Assembly: GCA_050187915.1 (NCBI GenBank)
Contig: JBFXLI010000007.1
Span: 1-45,809 of the forward strand
Direction of reading: 5' to 3'
Origin: Candidatus Woesearchaeota archaeon
Lineage (GTDB): Archaea > Nanobdellota > Nanobdellia > Woesearchaeales > SKGA01
Length of the DNA: 45,809 nt
Of the stretch, positions 3,691 to 45,809 are shown one piece after another. The position numbers were made by a program, and so were the translations under genes. Below the pieces are notes generated by a model that had not been told where the DNA came from, made no database searches, and was given only the letters and a program-made list of their open reading frames with translations. Numbering within the stretch: position 1 is the stretch's first letter; each line of letters opens with the position of its first letter.

Positions 3691-3825
3691 TAGAAAACAT
3701 TAATAAAAATAAAAAAATCTACTTCATTCGTCTATTGGCATATGACTACGCCAGCGACTAAAGCTACGCTTAAGTCACTAAACAATCTAGAAAACATAAT
3801 AAAAATAAAAAAATTTACTTCATTC
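3691..3825. repeat. Direct duplication of the rpl40e 3' end plus its downstream sequence (3691-3729 and 3788-3825) around a 58-nt GC-rich insert
   Basis: Copy 1 is tagaaaacattaataaaaataaaaaaatctacttcattc and copy 2 is tagaaaacataataaaaataaaaaaatttacttcattc, differing by 1 indel and 1 mismatch. The insert at 3730-3787 is gtctattggcatatgactacgccagcgactaaagctacgcttaagtcactaaacaatc. Confidence 0.85.
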
Positions 3826-14091: not shown

Positions 14092-14913
14092 CTAATTCAA
14101 ATTTTTTTTCTTTTCATTTAGGTGTAAATAATTCTTTTTTGAAACAACTTTTTCACCCGTTTCTTTTTCTAATTGTTTTCTCGCCATTCCTGCAACTTTT
14201 CCACCTTTTTTTGCAGCAACTTTATTTTGATGAAAACCTTGTGCATCTTTTTTTCTTGCAATTTTAGTTGTAGATGCTTCTCCAAGCATTGTAAAAATCA
14301 GTTCTAAATCATCCATATGGTCTCTGAGATTTTCAGATTTTAAATCCTTGATTGTTTTATAAGTGTGTATTTCAATTCCAAATGTTGCTTTACTTATCTC
14401 ATTTGTAAGTATTGCATATTCTTTTCTTTCTTTTACTCCACGTTTTTTCCATTCATCTGTTAATTCATCCCTTATAGCTATTCCTCGGACACGTTTTTCT
14501 ATCCAATCATCAGAGTAACCTTTAGATTTGTAAATTTCTTTCATTCTTTTTTGAGCTAATTCAGGATTTTCTATTTCTTGTATTCTTTCATACCCTACTT
14601 TAGCTAGCCAAATTTTAAATGGTTCAGCTTTTTTAGAAGGAATTGATTGTATAATTCTAAATAATGATTTTGTGTTAGCACAATCAGTAAGGTATTTTTT
14701 CCCATCTGAGGACTCTAATTTCAGTTGTCGACAAATTGTCGATAACTCAATTCCTTCCTCAAATTCTCTTTTTTTAATTCTATACCAATAATCTTTTGGA
14801 TCTACACTCTCAGTTAATACTTCTACTATGTCTATGACTGAGAAATACCACTCATCATTGTACCAAATTCTTCTTATGCTTTTATCTTGAAAAACTACTA
14901 ATTTAAATTCCAT
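14092..14913 (-). CDS. Bro-N domain / DinD-like (DNA-damage-inducible protein D family) protein
   Basis: It contains FQDKSIRRIWYNDEWYFSVIDIVEVLTES, FKIWLAKVGYERIQEIENPELA and RGIAIRDELTDEWKKRG. Confidence 0.65.
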   Translation of the reverse strand: MEFKLVVFQDKSIRRIWYNDEWYFSVIDIVEVLTESVDPKDYWYRIKKREFEEGIELSTICRQLKLESSDGKKYLTDCANTKSLFRIIQSIPSKKAEPFKIWLAKVGYERIQEIENPELAQKRMKEIYKSKGYSDDWIEKRVRGIAIRDELTDEWKKRGVKERKEYAILTNEISKATFGIEIHTYKTIKDLKSENLRDHMDDLELIFTMLGEASTTKIARKKDAQGFHQNKVAAKKGGKVAGMARKQLEKETGEKVVSKKNYLHLNEKKKNLN

Positions 14914-23411: not shown

Positions 23412-23469
23412 AAGATTATTTATAAATACAACTGAATTATTTATAAATAGGTAGGAATTGCTCTTAAAT

Positions 23470-26082
23470 ATGGCTGAAAAAGAACCTTTTAAAAAAATAA
23501 GTGCTAAAGAAAAATATCATATTAAACATATGTTGAAGGAACTTGAAAGTATTAGAGGTAGGCACACTGAATTAATCACATTATATATTCCTGCAGGTTA
23601 CGATATTAATGCTAAAATTGCTCAAATTCAACAAGAACAAGGTACTGCTACAAATATTAAAAGTAAAAATACACGAGATAATGTTATTGCTTCACTTGAA
23701 AAAATGGCTCAATTTTTAAGAGGTTTTAAAACTACACCTCCTAATGGACTTATGGTTTTTTCAGGTAATGCTGCTGAAAGAGAAGGGCAACAAGATTACA
23801 GAGTTTGGAGTTTTGAACCTCCTGTTCCTTTAAAACAAAACTTGTATAGGTGTGATAAAGAATTTGTACTTGATCCTATGAGAGATATGATTGAAGATAA
23901 AATTCTTTTTGGACTTGTTGTTATGGATAAAAGAGAAGGCAATATTGCTATGCTTAAAGGTAAAACTATTATTCATTTGGATACTATGACTTCTGCGGTT
24001 CCTGGGAAAACTAAGAGCGGGGGTCAATGTTTAGTTAGAGATTCTGCTGTTCAATTAGGGAGTGGAAATATTGTCTCTATTTGTGAAACTCATAATCCTT
24101 TAGCTGTTAAAAGTATGGTTGGAGATTATATTGGAACTAGTGATATAACTGATAAATGGGAAGTTCCTAAAGAAGAAGTTTATACTATTACAACTAAATA
24201 TCCTCGATTACAAGTTTCTTGTTCTAAAGATCATATATTCTTTGTTAGAACTTCGTCAGGCATTGTTGAGAAAAGTGCTTCTGAATTGAAGGTTGAAGAT
24301 GCTTTAATTATGCCTGAAATTATTGATGTTAAGGGAGTTAAGCAAAAGTTAGTTGCTAAAGATTATGTTTGTTATATTGTTTCTAAAGATGGTTTGAATG
24401 AATTTATTTCTAAACGAAAGGAATTAAATTTGAGTCAGAAAAAATTTGGAGAGATTAGTGATGTTCCTCAATCTAATATTAGTGCTTTTGAAAGAGGAGT
24501 GATTAATTTTACGGAGAATGTTTTGAACAGGTTGTTGAAAAATCTAGGTTTGGAAAATTTTTCTAAATATTTACAGATTAGACGCAAGGTTACTTTGCCT
24601 AAGGTTTTAGATAAAAATGTTGCTCAATTTATTGGTTATTACTTTGGTGATGGTTGTTCTGAAGATCACCGAATTACTTTATTTGAACAAAGAAAGGATG
24701 TTGCTTTGGAGTATAAACAGTTAGGTGAGAAATTATTTAATGTTGAAGGTAAGTGTAAATTTAGAGAAAGTAAAAATTATTATCAAATTCGTTTTGATGC
24801 TTTTGTGATTGTTAAGTTTTTAAAAGATAATTTTCCTGAGTTGAAAAAAGCTTTGGATAGTTGCGTTCCTAAAAAAATCATGGAGTCTAGTAATGATGTT
24901 GTTGCTGGTTTTTTGAAAGGATTGTTTGATGCTGAAGGTTATGTTGTTAAAGATAAAGTTGGAATTGGTTTGAACAATAAAAAAACCATTCAAACTATGC
25001 AGATGATGTTTTTGAGATTTGGAATAATTTCTTCTTTCTTAGAATATGACAATAATAGAAATAAATATTCAAACAATATTCGTTATTCGTTACAAATTAC
25101 TGATAAGGAATCTTTGGAGATTTTTCAACAAGTTATTGGTTTTACAGCTAAGGATAAATCTTTGAAGTTGAAAAAGTGTATTTTAAATAAAACTGACAAG
25201 AGTTCTGTAAGGCAGATTGTTGTTGCAGGAAGTATAGTTAGAAAACTTATTGAGAAATTTGGTTATAATTCTGAGAAATATGCTAAGGCTAATATGTTTT
25301 TAAGAGATAAACGAGAGATTAGTAAGGTTGTTTTTAAGAAAATTTTTATTGAAGGAACCAAAGATGTTAGTTTGAAATCTGAGTTTCAAAAGATTTATGC
25401 CAGAAAGATATTGCCTGTCAAGATTTCTTCGATTGATGTTAAAAAGGAGAAAAATATTATGATTGATATTAGTACTTCTAAGCAAAATTTTATTGCTAAT
25501 TGTTTAATAGTACACAATTCAGCTCAACGTTTTGAGCGTTTAAGAGATGGTGCTGCAATTGATTTTTATAAAAGAATTGCTGAGAGTATGAAAGAAAAAT
25601 TTCTAGATAATCAAACTGAACTTCAAGGAATTATTATTGGTGGTCCTGGTTTTACAAAATTTGAATTTGCTGATGGAAACTATATTAATGAAACTTTAAA
25701 AAGAAAAATTATTGCTGTTAAAGATATTTCTTATACTGGAGAATTTGGTGTTACTGAACTTGTTGAAAGAAGTGAAGATGTTCTTGCTGAAGAAGAAGTT
25801 ATTAAAGAAAAACAATTAATGAGAAGATTTTTTGAGTTATTATCTAAAGCTTCTGAAAAAGCTGCTTATGGATTTGATGATGTTTTAAAATATACTGAAA
25901 TGGGTGCTGTTGAAACAATTTTAGTTTCTGAAGAATTAGATGATAATGATATTGAAATTCTTGAAAAGGCATCTGATTTAGTTGGAACTAATTTAGAAAT
26001 TATTTCTGTTGAGACTCGTGAAGGTGTTCAATTGAGGGATATGGGTAAGGTTGTTGCTATTCTCAGATATTCTGTTGAATAA
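23470..26082 (+). CDS. prf1: Peptide chain release factor aRF1, interrupted by an intein
   Basis: It contains the NIKS motif (GTATNIKSKNTRDN) and a GGQ motif (PGKTKSGGQ) followed after the intein by SAQRFERLRDG. The extein total is about 373 aa. The start was set at the first ATG (MAEKEP...), whereas the track starts at a TTG at 23458. Confidence 0.9.
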   Translation: MAEKEPFKKISAKEKYHIKHMLKELESIRGRHTELITLYIPAGYDINAKIAQIQQEQGTATNIKSKNTRDNVIASLEKMAQFLRGFKTTPPNGLMVFSGNAAEREGQQDYRVWSFEPPVPLKQNLYRCDKEFVLDPMRDMIEDKILFGLVVMDKREGNIAMLKGKTIIHLDTMTSAVPGKTKSGGQCLVRDSAVQLGSGNIVSICETHNPLAVKSMVGDYIGTSDITDKWEVPKEEVYTITTKYPRLQVSCSKDHIFFVRTSSGIVEKSASELKVEDALIMPEIIDVKGVKQKLVAKDYVCYIVSKDGLNEFISKRKELNLSQKKFGEISDVPQSNISAFERGVINFTENVLNRLLKNLGLENFSKYLQIRRKVTLPKVLDKNVAQFIGYYFGDGCSEDHRITLFEQRKDVALEYKQLGEKLFNVEGKCKFRESKNYYQIRFDAFVIVKFLKDNFPELKKALDSCVPKKIMESSNDVVAGFLKGLFDAEGYVVKDKVGIGLNNKKTIQTMQMMFLRFGIISSFLEYDNNRNKYSNNIRYSLQITDKESLEIFQQVIGFTAKDKSLKLKKCILNKTDKSSVRQIVVAGSIVRKLIEKFGYNSEKYAKANMFLRDKREISKVVFKKIFIEGTKDVSLKSEFQKIYARKILPVKISSIDVKKEKNIMIDISTSKQNFIANCLIVHNSAQRFERLRDGAAIDFYKRIAESMKEKFLDNQTELQGIIIGGPGFTKFEFADGNYINETLKRKIIAVKDISYTGEFGVTELVERSEDVLAEEEVIKEKQLMRRFFELLSKASEKAAYGFDDVLKYTEMGAVETILVSEELDDNDIEILEKASDLVGTNLEIISVETREGVQLRDMGKVVAILRYSVE
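24028..25518 (+). mobile_element. Intein (497 aa) with a LAGLIDADG homing endonuclease and an XRE-type HTH, inserted between Q of GGQ and Ser
   Basis: It starts CLVRDSAVQL (Cys1) and ends CLIVHN, followed by Ser at +1. Block B is likely VSCSKDHIFFV. The LAGLIDADG motifs are FIGYYFGDG and FLKGLFDAEGYV. The HTH is LSQKKFGEISDVPQSNISAFERG. Confidence 0.88.
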
Positions 26083-33275: not shown

Positions 33276-33830
33276 TTAATGGTGATGTCCACAAGATGAA
33301 CAATTTCCTGAGCAACCTTCTTCATCGTCACATTCTTCTTCATCTTCGTGATTGTGTTGCATGAATTTCTTTTTGTCTTCTTCAGTTGCTTCTCTTGCTT
33401 CAACTATTTTTATGTGGAAATTTAATTTTTTTCCTGCTAATGGATGATTTGCATCTAATTCAATAGTTTCTTCTTCTATTTTTGTTACTTGAACTGGAAT
33501 TGAATGTTCTGTATTTGGTATTTGCATTCCAAGTACGGTTCCTACCTTTATGTTTTTTATATTATCTCCTAATGCTGATTTCGGAACTTTTTGTACTAAA
33601 GATGGGTTATGTGCACCGTATCCTTCGCTTGGTTCAACAACAACATCTTTTTCTTCGTTTGATTTCATTCCAATTAAAGCTTCGTCAAAACCTTTTATTA
33701 ACATTCCATTGCCTGCAATAACTTCTAATGGTTCTCTGCCTTCTGATGAATCGAAAATATTTCCATCTTCAAATTTTCCTGTGTATTGTACTTTCACAAA
33801 ATCATCTTTTTTTACAATTTTTTCACTCAT
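33276..33830 (-). CDS. slyD: FKBP-type peptidyl-prolyl isomerase, SlyD-like, with a Cys/His-rich metal-binding tail
   Basis: It contains VKVQYTGKFEDGNIFDSS, GFDEALIGM and NHPLAGKKLNFHIKIVEAREAT. The tail is HNHEDEEECDDEEGCSGNCSSCGHHH. Confidence 0.85.
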   Translation of the reverse strand: MSEKIVKKDDFVKVQYTGKFEDGNIFDSSEGREPLEVIAGNGMLIKGFDEALIGMKSNEEKDVVVEPSEGYGAHNPSLVQKVPKSALGDNIKNIKVGTVLGMQIPNTEHSIPVQVTKIEEETIELDANHPLAGKKLNFHIKIVEAREATEEDKKKFMQHNHEDEEECDDEEGCSGNCSSCGHHH

Positions 33831-34413: not shown

Positions 34414-34584
34414 TTAAAGGTCTTTAGCCATTACTGTTCTTCTTCCATTAGCTTCTGCTCTTGCTGCTGCTTTTTTTAGTAAATCTCTTACAATTTTATC
34501 TAATTCTTCAGCAAGGTCTCCTGCTACATTGAAGTCTCCAATAACATCTTTTAATTTTGCTTTTACTACTACTAAATCTGCCAT
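34414..34584 (-). CDS. Small histone-fold-like protein (DUF1931 family candidate, 56 aa)
   Basis: It is below the track cutoff. The sequence is MADLVVVKAKLKDVIGDFNVAGDLAEELDKIVRDLLKKAAARAEANGRRTVMAKDL, with GAGGTG 7 nt upstream of the ATG. Confidence 0.65.
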   Translation of the reverse strand: MADLVVVKAKLKDVIGDFNVAGDLAEELDKIVRDLLKKAAARAEANGRRTVMAKDL

Positions 34585-34703
34585 AATAAGCACCTCATTT
34601 TAGGGTTTTAGCCCTTATAATCATATTTTTTGAGGTTTTAGTATTTAAGTGTTTCGTTAATTTGTCCAGTGCATTTATAAATAAAATATATTTTTCTTTT
34701 TTT

Positions 34704-35387
34704 ATGAAATTTGGATTATTGCTTAGTGGTGGTAAGGATTCGCTTTATTCAGCTTATTTAGCTTCTAAAGAACATAAATTAGTTTGTGCTATAACTATTT
34801 ATTCTGAAAACAAAGATAGTTATATGTTTCATACTCCTAATATTAAATGGGTTGGTTTGCAAACAGAGAGTATGGGAATTCCTTTGATGATTGCAAAAAC
34901 TAAAGGTGTAAAGGAAGAAGAATTAGTTGATTTGAAAAAAGCTATTTCTGATGCTGTTGAACAGTTTGGAATTGAGTGTATTGTTACTGGAGCTATTGGT
35001 TCTGTTTATCAAGCTGAAAGAATTCAAAAAATTTGTGATGAACTTGGTTTGGTTTGTTTGAATCCTATTTGGCAAAAAAATCAAGTTGAATTATTGCATG
35101 AGTTGGTTTCAAATAAATTTCATGTTATTGTTGGTGCAATTGCGGCTTATGGACTTGATAAGAATTGGATTGGAAAAGAACTGGATTCTAAGATGATTTT
35201 AAAATTATCTGAGTTGCAAAAAAAATTTGGTTTGAATCCTGCTTTTGAAGGTGGAGAAGTTGAAAGTTTTGTAATTGATTGTCCTTTGTTTTCTAAGAAA
35301 ATTGAAATTGTTAATTCTTTTGTTGAAATGGAAAATGAGATTACAGGTAGATTAATTATTGAAGATGCTAAGTTAGTTGAAAAATAA
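34704..35387 (+). CDS. PP-loop ATP pyrophosphatase, MJ0570 / diphthine-ammonia ligase (Dph6)-like
   Basis: It begins MKFGLLLSGGKDSLYSAYLA, which includes the SGGKDS PP-loop. The start was set at the internal ATG at 34704. Confidence 0.75.
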   Translation: MKFGLLLSGGKDSLYSAYLASKEHKLVCAITIYSENKDSYMFHTPNIKWVGLQTESMGIPLMIAKTKGVKEEELVDLKKAISDAVEQFGIECIVTGAIGSVYQAERIQKICDELGLVCLNPIWQKNQVELLHELVSNKFHVIVGAIAAYGLDKNWIGKELDSKMILKLSELQKKFGLNPAFEGGEVESFVIDCPLFSKKIEIVNSFVEMENEITGRLIIEDAKLVEK

Positions 35388-35426
35388 ACAATATATTTAT
35401 ATAAAATAATAAAATATTTTTTGATA

Positions 35427-35768
35427 ATGAATCTACATGAAATATTGTCTCAATTTTATCAATGGTATAATTATAAACCAAATTGGTTAAAAGGAGGACT
35501 TATCGGCATTTTAATATCTTTAATAATTTCATTTATAGGTATAATAAATCAATCATTTTTAGCAACAAATATTTCTGACATACTTTCACTACCCTTTTCT
35601 ATATTTGCTTTCTTGTTGGATGTAGCTTTTTGTGGAGGGTGGAATGAGTGTCCAGAAAATAATTATTTAGTTATATTTATTCTAGCCACAATAGGATTAA
35701 TAATTTCTTTCTTCATAATAGGTTCAATAATAGGATATATATTCCAAATAATTAAAAAATATAAATAA
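35427..35768 (+). CDS. Small membrane protein
   Basis: It has three hydrophobic segments and no recognisable motif. Confidence 0.45.
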   Translation: MNLHEILSQFYQWYNYKPNWLKGGLIGILISLIISFIGIINQSFLATNISDILSLPFSIFAFLLDVAFCGGWNECPENNYLVIFILATIGLIISFFIIGSIIGYIFQIIKKYK

Positions 35769-35775
35769 AATAATT

Positions 35776-35814
35776 ATTATTTATGTGTGAACCAGAAAAC
35801 TCTTGTTCCATCTT
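35776..35814. repeat. Displaced copy of the gltX 3' end (39 nt, 1 mismatch against 37374-37412)
   Basis: The sequence attatttatgtgtgaaccagaaaactcttgttcc(a/g)tctt occurs at both positions. On the reverse strand this copy still reads ...RPEDGTRVFWFTHK*, against the genuine GluRS end ...KKDGTRVFWFTHK*. Confidence 0.9.
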
Positions 35815-36021
35815 CTGGTCGAAAATGTTTTGTTACAAGAACACTTAAGTGAATTTGATTATTATTTCAAAACAGTTCTCAAAATGTTGTCTAATTACGA
35901 TGATTTAAATGAGAATGATTTAGATTTTTTAATGGCTAGTACTCCTGAACAAGGTATTGAGCATTTTACTAATAAAGTTATTCCTGCTGTCGAAAAATAT
36001 GCTTTTTCAATTTCAAATTAA
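35803..36021 (+). CDS. Doubtful 72-aa ORF (TTG start) overlapping the gltX-end remnant
   Basis: It is supported only as an ORF, has a non-ATG start, and has no recognisable motif. Confidence 0.25.
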   Translation: MFHLLVENVLLQEHLSEFDYYFKTVLKMLSNYDDLNENDLDFLMASTPEQGIEHFTNKVIPAVEKYAFSISN

Positions 36022-36149
36022 ATAATTTCGAAATATTTTCGGTTTCTTTGTGAGTGGTTATATTAGTTAGTTAATTTAAAATATATTAATACTGCCATAT
36101 ATGAAAAATAATTAGATAATTATATAAATTATAATTTTAAAATAAACAT

Positions 36150-37373
36150 ATGTTAAGATTCATTAGATTTTTAAAAAAATATGATGTTAATAGACATAAT
36201 AGAGTTATGCAGTTTTCAATTTATTTTTTTCTTTGGGCTATTGCATTTTCTTTATTTGATTATTTTGCTCCATTGTATCTTGAAAATCTGGGATTAAGTT
36301 ATTTTAAAATTGGAATTATTTTATCAGGAAGTTCTTTTATTTCATTTTTTATTGATCCTTTTTTAGGACAATTGCAAAAAAAATTTCCTGCTAAAACTTT
36401 GCTTTTAAGTTCAATTTTTTTATTTGTATTAAATATTATTTTATTTATTAAATCTGGAAATTTATTTTTCATACTTTTTTTAGCCACAAATATTTATGGA
36501 GTTGCATTTGATTTATTTAGCATTACTTCTTACACTAAAGTATTTGAAAATTCTATTGAAAAAGATAGATCTACGAATATTTCATTTTTTGAATCTTTTT
36601 ATTCTTTAGGTTTATTAATAGGTGCTTTAATTGTTGGATTTGTTGCTAGCTCAAATCTTAATAATATTCCTTATCTTTGTTTTCTTGTTTTAATATTTTT
36701 ATTTTTTGTAATTCTTTTTGCTAAAAAAGAAAAAATGGATGTTACTGATAATTTTTCAATTATTGAAAGTTACAAAAAAACTTTAAATCAATTTAAATTT
36801 ATGGGGAGAGGTGGTTTGATTTTAGTTTTTGCTTTAATTTTCATACATTTATTTGATGGTTTCTTTTTTATTTTTGAACCTATCTTTGCTCAAAAATTTC
36901 AAGGATATTTTTTAGATGAATTTATAATTGGCGGAATTTTACTTGCAGTTTATACTTTACCTATAATACTTTTTGAACCTAAATTTGGAAAATTAGAAGA
37001 TAAATATGGAAGGAAGAAATTTTTATTTTTGGGATTTTCATTAGGTGCTGTTTCTTTGTTTCTTTTAAGATTTTTTGATGGAGTTTTTATGTCTGGACTA
37101 TTTATATTTTTATCGAGTCTTGGTTTTTTCGCTATGGCTTTGCCTGCTGTTGAAGGAATGTATGAAAGTATTACTGAAAAAAAATTTGGAAAAAATTATA
37201 GAGGTTATTCGGTTAGTATTATGGAGTTAACTTTAAGTGTTGGTTTTTTGTTAGGGCCATTTTTGGGTGGAATAATGCTTAGTATGCCTGATGGTTTTAA
37301 TTTTGCTTTTAAAATTTTTTCATATGTTACTTTAGGAATTATGCTTTTAATTTCATTTTTTGTTGATGTTTAA
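36150..37373 (+). CDS. Major facilitator superfamily transporter
   Basis: It has about 12 hydrophobic segments and an MFS loop-like motif FGKLEDKYGRKKF between TM8 and TM9. Confidence 0.75.
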   Translation: MLRFIRFLKKYDVNRHNRVMQFSIYFFLWAIAFSLFDYFAPLYLENLGLSYFKIGIILSGSSFISFFIDPFLGQLQKKFPAKTLLLSSIFLFVLNIILFIKSGNLFFILFLATNIYGVAFDLFSITSYTKVFENSIEKDRSTNISFFESFYSLGLLIGALIVGFVASSNLNNIPYLCFLVLIFLFFVILFAKKEKMDVTDNFSIIESYKKTLNQFKFMGRGGLILVFALIFIHLFDGFFFIFEPIFAQKFQGYFLDEFIIGGILLAVYTLPIILFEPKFGKLEDKYGRKKFLFLGFSLGAVSLFLLRFFDGVFMSGLFIFLSSLGFFAMALPAVEGMYESITEKKFGKNYRGYSVSIMELTLSVGFLLGPFLGGIMLSMPDGFNFAFKIFSYVTLGIMLLISFFVDV

Positions 37374-37412
37374 ATTATTTATGTGTGAACCAGAAAACTC
37401 TTGTTCCGTCTT
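37374..37412. repeat. Genuine gltX 3' end, the repeat partner of 35776-35814
   Basis: See the feature at 35776-35814. Confidence 0.9.
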
Positions 37413-39102
37413 TTTTGATTTCATCTAATCTACAAAAACCAAACCTTTCAAATTGAATTATTTCTCCAACTTTTAATGTAGTTATTGATTTTTCTGCAAT
37501 TCCTTTTAGGGTTGTTGCATCATTCATTAGAATTTCTATGTTAATATTGTTTTGTGTTGGTAAGAAGTGTATTATTTTTTTACCTTTTTCTTTGAATGTT
37601 TCATAATCTAAACTATCAAAAGAATATTCGTTAAATGATTTTTTGAAATTTAAGCAATCCATTAATCTGTAAACTTCTCCATTTTGGAAATCTTTGCAAT
37701 CGTTGTTTGAAATTAAGAATTCATCTGTTAAATCTAATTCTCTTAATCCTAAACTATTTTCTGGATGCATTTGTAATTTTAATTTTTGAGGTTTTGCATT
37801 TATTATTTTTATTTTTACTGCATCTGTTAGCATAAAAAATCTTTTTGCTTTTGGATCAATTAATTCTTTGTTAAATGAATTTATTATTTTAAAGAATTCT
37901 TCACCAGGAATTGTTTTATCTACTTGGGATAATCCTGTTAATTTAGTATATTTTAATAATGCTTCTGGTTGATATCCTTTTCTTCTGAGTGCTTGCAAAA
38001 ATGGTACTCTTATATCATCCCATCCTGAAAAATCTCCTTTTTTAATTCTTGCTTTGGTTTTAGTACAAGATATTTCTAGTCCTTCAAAATTGTATCTTCC
38101 TAAAAAGTATGTTTGTGGAAATTTATCTGCAATTCCTAATGCTTGATATATTTTTTCTTGTCTTTTTGCATTGTCTGCATGTTCTTTTGCTCTTATAATG
38201 TGTGTCATTCCTGCTTCTATGTCATCAACCGTTACACATAAATTCATTAATGGCCAAACTCTATATTTCAATCCTTGTCTTGGATGATTTGAATCATTTA
38301 TTCTTGCTAAGGGGAAATCTCTCATTGCGGGATTTTTATCTTGCATTCCTGATTTGAATCTTATTACTGCTTCTCCTTCTTTGAATCCATTTTTTTTGTC
38401 AAACATTTTTTCCCATCTTGCTTGATTTTCTTCTATTAAATTATTTCTACATGGACAATTTTTTGATGTATCTGCAAATGATTTAAATTGTTCTTGAGAA
38501 CAAGTACAAATATATATTGCATTTAATTTTAATAATTTTTCAAGGTAATCATAATATATTTGCATTCTGTCTGATTGTATCCATACTTCAGATACATTTC
38601 CAAAAATCCAATTTGCATCTTCAGGTAATAATTTGTATGCGTCTAAATATATATTGTCGCTGTTTGTATCTTCTATTCTTAGAATAAATTTTCCACCATA
38701 TTTTTTTACATATAATGAAGTAAGTCCACCTGTTATTGCATGTCCTATGTGCATTGGACCTGATGGTGAAGGAGCAAATCTCATTATTACTCCTTTTTTT
38801 GTATTGACTTTATCTAATTCTTTTAATTCATCTTTGATGTGTTTATTTTGTTCTTGTTTTTTTTCTTGTTCTTGAAAATAATTTGGATTTAGTTTTAATA
38901 ATTCTTTTTCTTGTTTGTCTATTGATAATTTGTTTATTTCTTCAACTATTTCTTTTATTTGTGATTGTAATTGTGACATATTGTCTTTTGCTTCTGGATG
39001 AATTTTTATTATTGAACCTACTAAGGCTGATGGATTTGCTTTTCCTTTGAATTTTAATGCATTTTCTAATGCTAATTGGGTAATTGTATTTTTGTAATCC
39101 AT
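37375..39102 (-). CDS. gltX: Glutamyl-tRNA synthetase, archaeal/eukaryotic type
   Basis: It contains RFAPSPSGPMHIGHA (HIGH motif), RIEDTN and the archaeal-type C-terminal anticodon-binding region. Confidence 0.9.
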   Translation of the reverse strand: MDYKNTITQLALENALKFKGKANPSALVGSIIKIHPEAKDNMSQLQSQIKEIVEEINKLSIDKQEKELLKLNPNYFQEQEKKQEQNKHIKDELKELDKVNTKKGVIMRFAPSPSGPMHIGHAITGGLTSLYVKKYGGKFILRIEDTNSDNIYLDAYKLLPEDANWIFGNVSEVWIQSDRMQIYYDYLEKLLKLNAIYICTCSQEQFKSFADTSKNCPCRNNLIEENQARWEKMFDKKNGFKEGEAVIRFKSGMQDKNPAMRDFPLARINDSNHPRQGLKYRVWPLMNLCVTVDDIEAGMTHIIRAKEHADNAKRQEKIYQALGIADKFPQTYFLGRYNFEGLEISCTKTKARIKKGDFSGWDDIRVPFLQALRRKGYQPEALLKYTKLTGLSQVDKTIPGEEFFKIINSFNKELIDPKAKRFFMLTDAVKIKIINAKPQKLKLQMHPENSLGLRELDLTDEFLISNNDCKDFQNGEVYRLMDCLNFKKSFNEYSFDSLDYETFKEKGKKIIHFLPTQNNINIEILMNDATTLKGIAEKSITTLKVGEIIQFERFGFCRLDEIKKDGTRVFWFTHK

Positions 39103-39186
39103 AACAAAGAATAATTGTATTTTATTTATAAAGTTTAGTTATAAATAAAAGATAATTTTAAATATATGTTGCTGGAAACATGATTT

Positions 39187-39594
39187 ATGGAAAATTGTGT
39201 ATATTGTAAAATTATTGAAGGGAAACTTCCTACTGTGAAGATTTATGAAGATGAAGATTTTTTAGTTATTCAAAGTTTGGGACAAAATTCTAAAGGACAT
39301 TCTTTAATTATTCCTAAAAAACATTCTGAAGATATTTTAGAAATGAATAATAATTTGGGATGTAAATTTTTTGAAATTGTTAAAAAAGTGGGAAATGCAA
39401 TGATAAAAGGACTTGAAGCTGAAGGTTTTAATTTAATTTTTAATACTAAATCTGCTGCTGGACAAGTTATTATGCACACCCATTGTCACATTATTCCCAG
39501 GTATAAAAATGATGGTTTAAAGTGTTGGCATGAACATCAAGTTTCTGAAGAAGATAGACTTTTATTTGCTGAAAAGATTATAAAAGAACTATGA
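39187..39594 (+). CDS. HIT family (histidine triad) nucleotide hydrolase
   Basis: It contains CVYCKII and HTHCHIIPR, the HxHxHxx motif. Confidence 0.88.
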   Translation: MENCVYCKIIEGKLPTVKIYEDEDFLVIQSLGQNSKGHSLIIPKKHSEDILEMNNNLGCKFFEIVKKVGNAMIKGLEAEGFNLIFNTKSAAGQVIMHTHCHIIPRYKNDGLKCWHEHQVSEEDRLLFAEKIIKEL

Positions 39595-39664: not shown

Positions 39665-39791
39665 GCGGGAGTAGTTCAGCCTGGTTAGATCGCCACGCTC
39701 ATAAATGGAACTTGAGCGATGAGAAGAAATTCGATGATTATCAAGTTGCGGTGTACCGTGGAAGTCCGGAGTTCAAATCTCCGCTCCCGCA
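39665..39791 (+). tRNA. tRNA with a CAU anticodon (elongator Met or Ile2) and a 52-nt intron at or next to position 37/38
   Basis: The fold has acceptor GCGGGAG/CTCCCGC, anticodon stem CCACG/CGTGG and loop CTCATAA. The anticodon is at 39700-39702 and the intron spans about 39705-39756. The T arm is CGGAG-TTCAAAT-CTCCG and the discriminator is A. The G1:C72 pair and the absence of a GGG/CCC stem argue against an initiator tRNA. Confidence 0.85.
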
Positions 39792-39865: not shown

Positions 39866-39881
39866 AATCTCCGCTCCCGCA
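39866..39881 (+). repeat. Displaced copy of the tRNA(CAU) 3' end (AATCTCCGCTCCCGCA), 90 nt downstream of the genuine one at 39776-39791
   Basis: The 16-nt identity is exact. With the preceding GTTCA and a 3-nt insertion (GTTCAtggAATC...) the copy reaches back into the T-loop. The intervening 74 nt contains GATTTGAAC, the reverse complement of the T-loop GTTCAAATC, and a 7-bp hairpin CAAACTTttcAAGTTTG. Confidence 0.85.
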
Positions 39882-39926: not shown

Positions 39927-40202
39927 ATGATTAATGATATTGTAGATGAATTGTTGATTGAAAATAAAAAAGTAACTCAAGCGCATGTTAGAAGAAAATA
40001 TTTTTCTAGAATTATTCATATTGGTATTTATGGAGATGAACTTTGTCCTAATTGTATCTCTGATAAGGAAAAAATTAATGAATTTATGAAAAAATATGGT
40101 GAAAAAAACACATATTATGCTTTAATTGACAATGAAAATTCTGGTTTTATTCTTGTAAATTTAAATGGAGAAGAACCAATTTCTGAAGCATACAAATTCT
40201 AA
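39927..40202 (+). CDS. Hypothetical protein (91 aa)
   Basis: It is supported only as an ORF with an ATG start and has no recognisable motif. Confidence 0.4.
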   Translation: MINDIVDELLIENKKVTQAHVRRKYFSRIIHIGIYGDELCPNCISDKEKINEFMKKYGEKNTYYALIDNENSGFILVNLNGEEPISEAYKF

Positions 40203-40205
40203 ATG

Positions 40206-40305
40206 GCGCCACGACCCAGATTGTTAATCATTTATGATTAACCAACGAACGAAGCAAAGCGTAGTGACTATGTGAACTGGAAGTTCAAATCTGTTAACAA
40301 CTAAA
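40206..40305 (-). repeat. 100-nt repeat carrying a tRNA-Ser 3' end, copy 1
   Basis: It matches 40821-40920 at 98/100 positions. Read on the minus strand it contains these parts in order:
- CAGATTTGAACT, an inverted T-arm copy.
- TCCAGTTCA.
- A 50-nt insert with the 9-bp hairpin GTTAATCAT/ATGATTAAC.
- AATCTGGGTCGTGGCG, followed by CCA in this copy. Confidence 0.85.
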
Positions 40306-40329
40306 GAAGTTCAATTTGAGAAGAAAGAG

Positions 40330-40410
40330 CGCCACGACTCAGATTTGAACTGAGAATCCGTAAGGACCGGTTTTCGAGACCGGCGCAATACCGAGTTATG
40401 CGATCGTGGC
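40330..40410 (-). tRNA. tRNA-Ser(CGA), class II, no intron
   Basis: The hand fold is GCCACGA TC GCA TAACTCGGTAT TGC G CCGGT CTCGAAA ACCGG TCCTTACGGATT CTCAG TTCAAAT CTGAG TCGTGGC G. The anticodon is at 40374-40376. It has a long variable arm and a G discriminator. Confidence 0.85.
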
Positions 40411-40459
40411 ATGAATTTACTAATGATACGACTCGCGACTGAAGCGTTTATGCTTCACG

Positions 40460-40479
40460 TATGCGATCGTGGCATGAAT
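40460..40479 (-). repeat. Displaced copy of the tRNA-Ser(CGA) 5' end plus 6 upstream nt (ATTCAT GCCACGATCGCATA), 63 nt upstream of the genuine one
   Basis: The 20-nt sequence is identical to 40397-40416. The 43-nt spacer between them is GC-rich and contains the hairpin TGAAGC/GCTTCA. Confidence 0.85.
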
Positions 40480-40483
40480 GTAA

Positions 40484-40774
40484 TTATTTTATTTCTTTTT
40501 TCATTTCTTCAACAGTTTTTTTGAAAGCAGAAATTTGTTTTTCAGATATTGTTCCATATTTAATATAATTTATTTTTATGTTTCTTAGAAATGCATTTTG
40601 TTTATAATATTCTTCAGGAATATCTAATATTTTTTTTACAAATGGATCTGTTATTTCTTTGTTTAATTCTTCTTTTTGACATTCGTAACATATTACATAT
40701 GGTTGTTTTTTTGTAGTCATAACATAATTTATTTTGCATTTGTTGCATTTTTGTTTGAATTGAATTTTAACCAT
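40484..40774 (-). CDS. Hypothetical zinc-ribbon protein (96 aa) between the two tRNA-Ser modules
   Basis: It has the Cys pairs CNKC...CYEC at the N-terminus and no other motif. Confidence 0.45.
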   Translation of the reverse strand: MVKIQFKQKCNKCKINYVMTTKKQPYVICYECQKEELNKEITDPFVKKILDIPEEYYKQNAFLRNIKINYIKYGTISEKQISAFKKTVEEMKKEIK

Positions 40775-40820
40775 ATTTTTAGTAAAAATAAGTTATTTAT
40801 AAAATTGTTGAGAATAAAGA

Positions 40821-40920
40821 GCGCCACGACCCAGATTGTTAATCATTTATGATTAACCAACGAACGAAGCGAAGCGTAGTGACTATGTGAACTGGAAGTT
40901 CAAATCTATTAACAACTAAA
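40821..40920 (-). repeat. 100-nt repeat carrying a tRNA-Ser 3' end, copy 2
   Basis: See the feature at 40206-40305. The two differences are g/a at 'gcaaagc' vs 'gcgaagc' and g/a at 'ctgtta' vs 'ctatta'. This copy is followed by CTC rather than CCA. Confidence 0.85.
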
Positions 40921-40941
40921 TATTTAAAGATAGAATGAAAA

Positions 40942-41062
40942 TGGCGCCACGACCCAGATTTGAACTGGGAATTCCTAACGGAACAAGCTTTCCAGGCCTA
41001 CGCTCAGATAAGCAACCTCTCACTTATATGATTTGCGCAATACCGGGTTATGCGATCGTGGC
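40942..41062 (-). tRNA. tRNA-Ser(GGA), class II, with an encoded CCA and a ~35-nt non-canonical intron at about position 27/28 (41000-41034)
   Basis: The hand fold is GCCACGA TC GCA TAACCCGGTAT TGC G C[35 nt]AGGC CTGGAAA GCTTG TTCCGTTAGGAATT CCCAG TTCAAAT CTGGG TCGTGGC G CCA. The anticodon is at 40991-40993. The exact intron borders are ambiguous by 1-2 nt. Confidence 0.75.
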
Positions 41063-41111
41063 ATGAATGTAATGAATGACATGACTCGCGATGGGAACGA
41101 TTAGGTGACCA

Positions 41112-41127
41112 TATGCGATCGTGGCAT
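41112..41127 (-). repeat. Displaced copy of the tRNA-Ser(GGA) 5' end (AT GCCACGATCGCATA), again exactly 63 nt upstream of the genuine one
   Basis: The 16-nt sequence is identical to 41049-41064. The 47-nt spacer shares the core AATGA.A.GACTCGCGA with the spacer of the other module. Confidence 0.85.
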
Positions 41128-41218
41128 AATTAATAATAAAAAGATTTCTAGTTAATTTAAAAAGTTATTTGTTAAGAAGCAAAGATTTTTGATAAAATAA
41201 AAAAATTTAAAATTGAAA

Positions 41219-43788: not shown

Positions 43789-43870
43789 TTTATTACCTTT
43801 TGTATGTTATGTTTATTATGTGTAATATGTTTAAATATTTAAATGTTTGTATTTGTATCTAAATGAGATT

Positions 43871-44716
43871 TTACGGAAGTTTGGTTAATATATCTAGATT
43901 TTCAATTTTACTGAATGCAAACCACTTTTTTCCTAGATCTTTTAAGGAAGCTCCAATATGATAAATTTCTTGTTTATCTATGATTATGAATCTATCATGT
44001 GATTTATTAAATTGTATTAATTCTATGTTATTATATTGTTGATTATATTTTGTTAGTGATAAATTTAATTTTTCAGTTATATTTTTTGTGTAAATTATTA
44101 CTTTTATTTTTGTTTGTGAAAATAAAATTAAAGTATTTTCATCAATATAATTATCTATAAGAATGATTTCTTGTTTTGCATTTTTTATTAAATCGTTGAT
44201 AAATTTGAAGGCATCAAATATTTGTCCATCATAAAAAATTCCTTTTTCTGGTTTTATATTTTTTTCTTGAATAAGATTAAATATTTCCTCTATTTTATTG
44301 TCGTGAGTTAATATTTGTTTTTCTGTTTTATCTAGTCGTTGAAATATTTCTGCATTTGATTGTAAAAAATGTCTCATTTGAACAAATGCATTCATAATAT
44401 TTATACTTACATTTATGGCCATTTTTGATTTTAATATTGCTGAAAGCATAGCAACACCTTGTTCTGTAAATACATATGGACGAAATCTTTTTTTATTCCA
44501 ATATTTATTTGTGGTCACAATTTGTGACCGCAAAAATTTAATATCTTTTTCTTCAATTTGAAACATGAATTCTTCAGGAAATCGTTCTATATTTCTTTTT
44601 ACTGCTTGATTTAAAGCTTTAACTGGAATCTCATATAGTTCAGCCAAGTCTGAGTCAAGCATTACTTGTTTTCCACGAATTGTGTAGATTTTGTTTTTTA
44701 TTGTTAATTCGTTCAT
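43871..44716 (-). CDS. ORF6N-domain (KilA-N-related) DNA-binding protein
   Basis: It contains IYTIRGKQVMLDSDLAELYEIPVKALNQAVKRNIERFPEEFMFQI and FTEQGVAMLSAILKS. Confidence 0.75.
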   Translation of the reverse strand: MNELTIKNKIYTIRGKQVMLDSDLAELYEIPVKALNQAVKRNIERFPEEFMFQIEEKDIKFLRSQIVTTNKYWNKKRFRPYVFTEQGVAMLSAILKSKMAINVSINIMNAFVQMRHFLQSNAEIFQRLDKTEKQILTHDNKIEEIFNLIQEKNIKPEKGIFYDGQIFDAFKFINDLIKNAKQEIILIDNYIDENTLILFSQTKIKVIIYTKNITEKLNLSLTKYNQQYNNIELIQFNKSHDRFIIIDKQEIYHIGASLKDLGKKWFAFSKIENLDILTKLP

Positions 44717-44780
44717 TAAAAAAATATATATTTAGTGTTATTTATAATTGCTTAAGAAAAAATCGAAAACTTTCCGAATT

Positions 44781-45614
44781 TTAATCTAATGGAGATTTTA
44801 TTTTTATTAATTCTGGTTTTACAATATGTAAATATGTTAATGTTGTTCTTGCTTCGTTGTGTCCTAACAATGATTGAACTGAAGTTATATCGCTTCCTTG
44901 CTCTAAAAGATGTGTTGCGAAGGAATGTCTGAAGGTATGTGGGTGAATGTGTTTTTTCCATTTTAATTTTTTTGTTATTTGGTGGATTATCATTTCAACA
45001 CTTCTTGTTGTTAAATGTGATTTTCTTCCTGGGAAAAGATATATTGGATTTTGTTGAAGTATTGTTTTTAGTTCTTGTGTTAAACATTTCGGTATAATGA
45101 AAGGTCTATCTTTATTTCCCTTGCCTTTTCGTACCCAACCAAGATTTGTTGTTAAATCTAAATCTTGTGGTTTTAGTTTTGTAACTTCAGAAACTCTTAG
45201 TCCTGCTCCATACATTAAAGAGATAAGAAGTTTGTGTTTTGGATTTTGTATTGCGTTTAGGAAGATTAATACTTCTTGTTTTGTTAAGCATGTTGGAAGT
45301 GTTTTTGGTGTTTTTGAGTATTTAATATTTAATCGCATACTTTTTCTTAAAACTTCTTCCATTAGAAATTTTATTGAGTTTAGTGCAACATTTAATGTCG
45401 AACCTGCAATTTCATCGTTAAATTTTGACCAGTGTAATTTATTTTCCATGAATTGGTTTAAGAATTCGTTGCAATCTTTTTTTGAAATTTGTTTTATTGG
45501 TTTATCTTTTGTGAAAAGGAGGAATTTTTTGACGTAGAAAAGATATGTATGTATTGTTTTGTATGAAAGTTTTCTTCTAAGCATTTCTTTTTTCATAGAT
45601 TCTATTGGATCCAT
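44781..45614 (-). CDS. Tyrosine recombinase (XerC/D/XerA-like integrase family)
   Basis: It contains GAGLRVSEVTKLKPQDLD (catalytic Arg) and HPHTFRHSFATHLLEQGSDITSVQSLLGHNEARTTLTYLHI (HxxR, H and Tyr). Confidence 0.88.
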   Translation of the reverse strand: MDPIESMKKEMLRRKLSYKTIHTYLFYVKKFLLFTKDKPIKQISKKDCNEFLNQFMENKLHWSKFNDEIAGSTLNVALNSIKFLMEEVLRKSMRLNIKYSKTPKTLPTCLTKQEVLIFLNAIQNPKHKLLISLMYGAGLRVSEVTKLKPQDLDLTTNLGWVRKGKGNKDRPFIIPKCLTQELKTILQQNPIYLFPGRKSHLTTRSVEMIIHQITKKLKWKKHIHPHTFRHSFATHLLEQGSDITSVQSLLGHNEARTTLTYLHIVKPELIKIKSPLD

Positions 45615-45809
45615 GATTTAATTTGGTAAAAGTGTTTAAAATAATCTCTTGCGAGAATTCCGGAGATTTTTCGGTTTTTTGTTTATTTTTAAAGGAATTA
45701 AAGAATTTTCTTTGAAGTGGTTACATTTTTTGAGATTTAATTTGTTAAATTTTGGAGCTATAAAGGCTAAAAGAACCGATTTCGCCCTTCTTCGCATATG
45801 AAGTGTTAA

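Follow-up and report, generated by a model that had tools for sequence, protein, structure and literature searches.

Does a duplicated gene end that brackets a transporter gene mark an integrated mobile element, or is it the trace of another kind of event? The question is raised by a 1.6-kb segment in a Candidatus Woesearchaeota archaeon (assembly GCA_050187915.1, contig JBFXLI010000007.1), in which an intact gene for a major facilitator superfamily (MFS) transporter lies between two copies of the 3′ end of gltX, the gene for an archaeal-type glutamyl-tRNA synthetase (GluRS). The whole stretch of this contig that was analysed, 45,809 nt long, is called the window here, and coordinates refer to it unless another sequence is named (Table 1). 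The initial annotation had taken the segment to be DNA integrated into the 3′ end of gltX while carrying a replacement end. That DNA was inserted, that the second copy keeps the gene whole and that a relative (L088) retains the empty site are all borne out, whereas reading the repeat as an att site that belongs to an MFS element finds only partial support. We tentatively read the structure from sequence comparison as the scar of one recent recombination at a hypervariable junction, homologous on the gltX side and illegitimate on the other, between an "empty" and a "filled" allele; on this reading, the 1.6-kb segment is no autonomous mobile element.

The duplication is as first described. The 39-mer has exactly two copies in the window (35776–35814 and 37374–37412), both on the plus strand and identical at 38 of 39 positions. 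The exact duplicate is 34 nt in direct orientation, 35776–35809 being the same as 37374–37407, and comprises ten gltX codons, the stop codon and 1 nt; the remaining 5 nt match at four positions (ATCTT and GTCTT, with the mismatch at 35810). The repeat begins 1 nt past the gltX stop codon and immediately after the MFS stop codon (37371–37373), the two stop codons being 1 nt apart. The displaced copy still encodes ...DGTRVFWFTHK* on the minus strand, as had been reported, and stop codons precede it. Because its last 34 bases occur twice, gltX is intact. Both copies have window-specific variants in common (CCAGAAAAC, where the relative L088 has CCAAAAAAT). No copy of the 39-mer is expected from dinucleotide shuffles, and the next-best match in the window reaches only 24 of 39 positions. 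Chance or a dispersed repeat is thus ruled out by the two copies, the zero expectation and this poor next match; the copy at 37374–37412 is the true gltX end.

The same structure is seen in independent data. A Logan unitig of 1624 nt (L001, run SRR27751817) is 100% identical to 35780–37403, which shows that the junction of the gltX end with the inserted sequence at 35810 is present in raw reads. The unitig breaks exactly where words of k = 31 lose their uniqueness, and its first 26 nt are the same as its last 26 nt; in a k = 31 graph, an integrated copy looks like a 1.6-kb circle plus an empty site.

The empty site is found in L088, a 1.02-Mb contig from the Joint Genome Institute (JGI) that is the closest relative (GluRS 87% identical in amino acids, gltX 88% in nucleotides). 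It is collinear with the window, and the flanking synteny is shared (a 56-aa gene, FKBP, a 660-aa protein and HIT). In L088, Dph6 is convergent with gltX across an AT-rich spacer of 39 nt, with nothing else between them: the membrane-protein gene, the gltX-end copy, the 72-aa open reading frame (ORF72) and the MFS gene of the window are all absent. In a BLASTN search, the reverse complement of L088 (9978–10038) aligns with window 35755–35814 at 90% identity over 61 nt, spacer and gltX end forming one unit. At up to three edits, the 22-mer of the spacer has just two matches in both strands of the window (91.6 kb), one of them exactly at 35755, and in a four-way alignment the 21–22 nt outside the displaced copy correspond to the L088 spacer. 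Because the displaced copy and the spacer align as a unit with L088, the displaced copy marks the former position of the gene end. The empty site in L088 and the spacer outside the displaced copy show that DNA was joined into the end of gltX, and by these alignments 35810–37373 is evidently placed inside its last 11 codons.

The empty site does not have the form that had been predicted, with the small membrane-protein gene directly abutting gltX. This 115-aa gene lies outside the repeat-bounded segment, is absent from both L088 and a second relative (L082), and has no homologue among 5.8 billion proteins; it is a lineage-specific orphan. Its length far exceeds that expected by chance in DNA of 24% GC, and its last codons extend into the ancestral spacer.

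The inner edge of the displaced copy leads into the relics of a broken gene of ~310 aa, here called X. The initial annotation had listed only a doubtful 72-aa ORF and the MFS gene between the repeats; both are present, but ORF72 is a relic of X and not a gene. The intact family is of ~300–316 aa, uncharacterised and from DPANN archaea, without a match in Pfam or PDB. In a HMMER search of 1.84 billion representatives, residues 23–69 of ORF72 correspond to the C-terminus of X, with 55% identity to P0150 (316 aa, residues 267–313) and 46% to P0151 (302 aa). A second relic of X, IHLSVLVTKHFRPED, is inverted and fused in frame to the displaced GTRVFWFTHK*; TBLASTN within the window matches it at 12 of 14 residues with P0150 (E = 0.004) and at 11 of 14 with P0151 (E = 0.016). 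The two relics are at most 10 nt apart. The 5 nt past the exact duplicate in the displaced copy (ATCTT) fit Glu-Asp codons of X, and the gltX allele of a third relative (L089) reads GAAGAAGAC at the position of the joint; with such an allele, AGAAGA(T/C) would be shared. A microhomology of 4–7 nt thus marks the joint of the gltX end with inverted X, ranging from AAGA to the AGAAGAT that an allele like that of L089 would give. Intact X is found in an ordinary chromosomal context in L090, and none of the 90 fetched loci has an intact X near gltX; the contexts of X in L090 and L091 are uninformative, and the 52-nt motif described below is absent there. From its sequence, this inner edge resembles a joint made by accident rather than an evolved attP.

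Table 1. Features of the gltX locus, in window coordinates.
Feature	Coordinates	Strand	Remarks
FKBP	33276–33830	-	Gene order around the locus
59-aa gene	34414–34593	-	Between FKBP and Dph6
Dph6 (diphthine-ammonia ligase)	34662–35387	+	Pfam Diphthami_syn_2, E 2e-64; NCBIfam Dph6_archaeal above cut-off
Orphan small membrane-protein gene, 115 aa	35421–35768	+	Outside the repeat-bounded segment; no Pfam match
Remnant of ancestral AT-rich spacer downstream of gltX	35755–35775		Just outside the displaced copy; overlaps the membrane-protein stop codon
Displaced repeat copy	35776–35809 (39-nt version to 35814)	-	34/34 identical to the gene end
ORF72, 72 aa	35803–36021	+	From the list of open reading frames
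Inverted relic of X, residues ~132–147	35810–35857	-	In-frame fusion with the displaced gltX end
C-terminal relic of X, residues ~266–313 and stop	35866–36021	+	Real content of ORF72
52-nt conserved non-coding motif	36021–36072	+	Two TTTCGR boxes and TATA-like GTGGTTATATTAGTTAGTT; ~80 nt upstream of MFS
MFS transporter gene, 407 aa, intact	36150–37373	+	Pfam MFS_1, E 2e-31
Proximal repeat copy	37374–37407 (39-nt version to 37412)	-	Functional last 10 gltX codons, stop and 1 nt
gltX (archaeal-type GluRS), 575 aa, intact	37375–39102	-	Pfam tRNA-synt_1c, _C and _C2
HIT	39187–39594	+	Right of gltX

The junction between Dph6 and gltX is hypervariable. Dph6 is its conserved left anchor, with orthologues of 82–86% amino acid identity in L088, L082 and L089. 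Four lineages at similar mutual distance (dS, synonymous substitutions per site, of 0.50–0.66 in Dph6) show four different states of the junction. Besides the bare spacer of L088, L082 (from the same run as L001) has Dph6, 41 nt and an MFS gene (71% amino acid identity) and lacks the repeat, X, ORF72 and the membrane-protein gene, and L089 has Dph6, the 52-nt motif, a MazE/AbrB-like gene, 45 nt and gltX; the window holds the orphan gene, the displaced gltX end, the X relics, the motif and MFS, having MFS in common with L082 and the motif in common with L089. For the right-hand neighbour of MFS in L082, 35 nt are available; they end ...ELKLIN*, unlike a GluRS C-terminus, and short-query BLAST is uninformative. 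Among 80 Woesearchaeota gltX loci, none has MFS, Dph6 or the membrane-protein gene as a neighbour, and the usual downstream neighbour is the 59-aa gene of Table 1. No duplicated gltX end occurs in 74 other Woesearchaeota gltX loci, so the duplication is a one-off event, and no older, decayed copy of the gltX end, as tandem accretion would leave, is found between Dph6 and MFS.

On the other side of gltX, L088 bears an AP-endonuclease-2 gene between HIT and gltX (8680–9861 in L088) that the window does not have (39103–39186). The direct repeat flanking it is AT-rich, 44 nt long and weak (70%), and 22 nt of the window spacer align to both of its sides; being weak and AT-rich, direct repeats around L088-specific genes are not used as evidence here.

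The repeat and the MFS gene seem to differ in age. Between the window and L082, dS is 0.84 for MFS and 0.59 for Dph6; it is 0.43 for gltX, and the two copies of the 34-nt repeat have no changes at all. If the neutral 34-mer dated from the lineage split, ~7 substitutions would be expected, and the probability of none is ~1 × 10−3, as estimated from pairwise dS of 0.43–0.59. Because no change is seen where ~7 are expected, the duplication is by this estimate recent. MFS is at least as divergent at synonymous sites as host genes and has host-like codon usage; in this genus, MFS therefore seems to have occupied the junction for a long time and may be older at the locus than the duplication, in which case the repeat could have formed after MFS arrived. 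The gene is under purifying selection (dN/dS ~0.24 against L082), and its GC content (0.234), GC at third codon positions (0.105) and codon usage lie inside the range of host genes. A foreign composition of the insert is thus ruled out, and the comparison of GC and codon usage that had been proposed as a check for foreign origin gives no sign of one.

We prefer, tentatively, the recombination between an empty and a filled allele. The empty allele would have read Dph6, (orphan gene), AT-rich spacer and gltX, and the filled allele would have had X, the 52-nt regulatory motif and MFS packed against the gltX end; L082 and L089, which carry parts of the filled allele at this junction (MFS and the motif, respectively) without the repeat, speak for this reading. 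Filled-type DNA would have been joined to empty-type DNA, with one crossover by ordinary homology within gltX, the homologous anchor. The other joint would have been illegitimate and mediated by microhomology (AAGA, up to AGAAGAT), linking a point of gltX 34 nt inside its 3′ end to an already scrambled X; a gltX end joined to an inverted X fragment with microhomology is what is found. The product would be an intact gltX beside MFS and a stranded 34-nt end copy on the old downstream spacer. The 34-nt repeat would then be the overlap of two crossover points, so that no evolved att site is involved, and its outer boundary would coincide with the gltX end because homology between the alleles begins there. 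That a filled allele with intact X once existed, together with the donor partner and the enzymology, is what we infer beyond these observations.

Such an event would be homology-facilitated illegitimate recombination, and Campbell-type integration of a circle with an accidental joint would give an equal product. Both have been described mainly in naturally transformable bacteria, and we know of no demonstration in DPANN archaea. The locus resembles homology-facilitated illegitimate recombination in having one side of the exchange in conserved gltX and the other as a novel microhomology joint in unrelated sequence, in encoding no dedicated enzymes and in its host-like composition, as from a close relative. 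It departs from the classical form, in which recipient DNA is replaced or deleted, in that a duplication results from the 34-nt overlap of the crossovers, and in that the donor allele was not found.

Several points weigh against this explanation. An intact X–motif–MFS–gltX arrangement was found in no genome; the filled allele is therefore a composite of pieces from different relatives. MFS and gltX are seen adjacent in the window only, as the right-hand neighbour of MFS in L082 is unlike GluRS, and the inverted piece of X at the joint calls for a further rearrangement or for a complex junction formed by template switching. Moreover, an ORF6N insertion with 23-nt direct repeats (43874–44777) lies beside a tyrosine recombinase gene in the window and hints at a systematic, enzyme-mediated process. 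Finally, archaeal elements that integrate 3′-distally into protein genes, at att sites 8–69 bp long, are well documented (PMC6563490).

These last points lead to the main rival, site-specific integration, which we consider less likely. A small element made of the X relics, the motif and MFS would have carried an attP mimicking the last 34–39 nt of gltX; a tyrosine or serine recombinase would have acted in trans, the element being non-autonomous, a satellite or of the kind of the integrative mobile elements exploiting Xer recombination (IMEX), or would have been lost by deletion, of which the X patchwork would be the scar. The topology is like that of attL and attR of an archaeal integrated element: direct repeats restore the 3′ end of the gene, a relative has an empty site, and the cargo of the junction differs by relative (MFS, a MazE-like gene or nothing). 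Integrated mobile genetic elements in the 3′-distal regions of archaeal protein genes likewise have bounding direct repeats, one being the functional gene end, and an empty site; the 34–39 nt fall within their range of 8–69 bp, and 14 of 68 thaumarchaeal elements use the 3′-distal parts of protein genes (PMC6563490). An Xer/integron-integrase-like tyrosine recombinase gene also lies 7.4 kb away (44781–45614), in a lineage-specific insertion beside a repeat-bounded single-gene insert. In contrast to those archaeal elements, the segment is 1.6 kb with one intact gene and no integrase, mobility or replication gene, one of its repeats ends in a microhomology joint with a broken gene, and no other element or attP copy is known.

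The features that would identify such an element, an integrase and recurrence, are not found. Neither an integrase nor a transposase is encoded in 35776–37412, which holds only MFS and the X relics; the initial annotation was right that no integrase lies inside. The 34–39-nt core has no match in viral contigs and a single one in JGI metagenomes, which is a normal gene end. No unit or core was found elsewhere, and all the protein clusters are singletons on one contig, in databases that hold few close relatives. The identity of the repeats stops exactly at the microhomology joint with the broken gene, so that a later deletion would need an endpoint right at the core. The relatives with MFS or the motif at the junction have no repeat, none of the 74 other Woesearchaeota gltX ends is duplicated, and MFS seems older at the locus than the repeat. 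On inspection, a weak inverted repeat is visible in the core, TGAACCAG-N6-CTTGTTCC, which would speak for the arms of a recombinase site around an overlap of 6–8 nt; it matches at 6 of 8 positions, which is not significant and lies within chance for an AT-rich sequence of 34 nt. The core is unlike the palindromic 23-nt repeat beside the Xer-like gene of the window.

A transposon, an insertion sequence or a casposon is rejected: there are no terminal inverted repeats (terminal alignment score 10, shuffle mean 9.7 ± 1.6) and no transposase or casposase gene. A 34-nt duplication is, besides, far above the usual length of target-site duplications.

It is improbable that the scar arose by template switching in cis, that is, by fork stalling and template switching (FoSTeS) or microhomology-mediated break-induced replication (MMBIR) on an X–motif–MFS–gltX chromosome during the deletion of X, with 34 nt copied from the gltX end in direct and 48 nt of X in inverted orientation. 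The junction is indeed a patchwork of short segments in both orientations, taken from less than 2 kb and joined with microhomology beside a deleted gene, as in the templated insertions of FoSTeS and MMBIR; no mobility genes are present, and a 16-nt copy of a tRNA 3′ end stands ~90 nt downstream of that tRNA, within an otherwise conserved flank. Against this, the displaced copy carries an ancestral spacer that is no longer beside the template: together with its 21–22 nt it matches the spacer and gltX end of L088, and a gltX end abutting MFS could not have supplied the spacer. Two independent events would need an identical breakpoint to the nucleotide. The ancestral spacer on the displaced copy thus favours an inter-allelic event over one in cis.

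About as doubtful is a more general idea, that a trans-acting Xer/integron-integrase-like recombinase, such as the one at 44781–45614, would insert integrase-less single-gene units at docking points, among them the Dph6–gltX junction and at least one more site in the window, with target duplications of 20–40 nt. A unit would be a promoter and a gene whose stop codon abuts the repeat; this rests on two cases and the nearby recombinase gene. Like integron cassettes and IMEX, the insert is a single-gene unit without an integrase at a fixed point, and an Xer/integron-integrase-like recombinase is encoded in the window. Unlike them, the recombinase falls below the cut-offs for IntI and XerA and lies 7.4 kb away, and cassette insertion leaves no 34-nt target duplication. 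An integron gene cassette is not supported, given the distance of the recombinase and its score below the IntI cut-off (202 against 265 bits). No attC-like structure appeared in an Rfam scan of 35380–36200, which was not a search aimed at attC.

Similarly improbable is an artefact of assembly choice, in which the sample would contain a circle or tandem array of 1598 nt (core, X relics, motif, MFS) beside a chromosome with the empty site, and the loop would have been threaded once via the core: the unitig ends at the repeat on both sides with its first and last 26 nt the same, the graph fits a loop and all the proteins involved are singletons from one contig, but reads of 100–150 nt with large-k assemblers normally resolve a 34-nt repeat, a 1.6-kb circle with just a transporter gene has no replication function, and the joint of the gltX end with X is real regardless and would need the same explanation.

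Whatever the mechanism, the locus adds a further case to a known class of events and reveals no new type of system or mobile element.

The MFS homologues are full length with 52–71% identity, and some of them (52–65%) lie in unrelated contexts: one is flanked by secY and adk in a bacterial ribosomal-protein operon where RecO and RuvX also occur (P0008, ERZ27296333), one lies beside an intein-bearing DnaB (P0007), and one is end to end with a convergent gene in another DPANN archaeon (P0011). Homologues of 57–65% identity are seen in both bacterial-type and DPANN archaeal contigs (P0008, L094, L085–L087, L092 and L093). No flanking repeats surround the MFS homologues in other genomes (L082–L087), and no MFS homologue was found in viral contigs. 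As no synteny is common to the homologues, their distribution suggests that the MFS family moved across domains among small-genome symbionts.

The 52-nt motif upstream of MFS has no second copy in the window, and among the loci it was found elsewhere in L089 only. In a BLASTN search, the reverse complement of L089 (479–531) matches window 36020–36072 with 83% identity (E = 5e-8). The L089 copy (701–753, minus strand) lies directly after the Dph6 stop codon and upstream of the MazE/AbrB-like gene; over the two copies, the motif measures 52–54 nt, with the TATA-like GTGGTTATATTARTTAGTT. No Rfam family matches in 35380–36200, the motif included. From its sequence and position, the motif may be a portable promoter or operator.

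Other insertions and repeats occur in the window. In comparison with L088, it has an insertion of 1.85 kb (43874–45719, within the region 43851–45749) where L088 has 14 nt. Its genes encode, both on the minus strand, an ORF6N-domain protein (43871–44716) and a 277-aa tyrosine recombinase (44781–45614), which in NCBIfam comes closest to integron integrase and to archaeal XerA without reaching the cut-off of either. A palindromic direct repeat of 23 nt (43851–43873 and 44778–44800, 83% identical) encloses just the ORF6N gene; the second copy with 13 further nt matches the single L088 site at 35 of 36 positions. The first copy includes the stop codon of ORF6N, a layout as for MFS and gltX. An intron-containing tRNA gene (39665–39791) has its last 16 nt (39776–39791) repeated exactly at 39866–39881, 90 nt downstream; L088 has that tRNA with a single copy of the end, the extra ~70 nt lying within otherwise conserved downstream sequence. 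A tRNA-Ser-like cluster (40200–41130) bears a direct repeat of 164 nt (40200–40363 and 40815–40978, 87%) and one of 37 nt (40383–40419 and 41035–41071, 95%). Its second unit seems to be intron-bearing, and further acceptor-stem and CCA-like ends (TGGCGCCACGACCCAGATT) may reflect additional or split tRNA genes not called by ARAGORN. The eRF1 gene (23458–26082, 874 aa in total) has an intein with LAGLIDADG and helix-turn-helix domains. A direct repeat of 29 nt (97%) is present at 3701–3729 and 3797–3825, spaced 96 nt, and a Bro-N domain protein gene is present at 14092–14913; Bro-N domain genes are common in viruses and mobile elements. A gene for a large Cys-rich protein (3–2600, more than 866 aa, with a weak DUF4215 match) runs off the left end of the window.

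The host assignment agrees with the gene content. The window is a contig of a Woesearchaeota (DPANN) archaeon with 25% GC, and archaeal-type GluRS, Dph6, fibrillarin/Nop, eRF1 and intron-bearing tRNAs are encoded in it. The closest GluRS genes are all from metagenome-assembled genomes of Woesearchaeota and Nanoarchaeota; the GluRS of the window is 87% identical to P0027, and its C-terminus ...FWFTHK* is kept in ~120 homologues. The host genome is a small, streamlined DPANN genome.

For the biology of this lineage, the locus is a clean and datable case of a streamlined DPANN genome gaining a gene beside an essential one, which stays undamaged; to our knowledge, such insertion events are rarely documented in the lineage. 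For annotation, it warns that an att-like repeat need not mark a mobile element and that the enclosed "ORF" is a gene relic. If the improbable idea of a trans-acting recombinase were true, a DPANN cassette-exchange system would be moving genes such as this MFS family, which is shared by bacterial-type contigs, possibly of the Candidate Phyla Radiation (CPR), and DPANN contigs. Independently of that idea, the four contents found in four lineages at one 39-nt intergenic point make the junction useful for the study of gene turnover and inter-strain recombination in uncultured Woesearchaeota.

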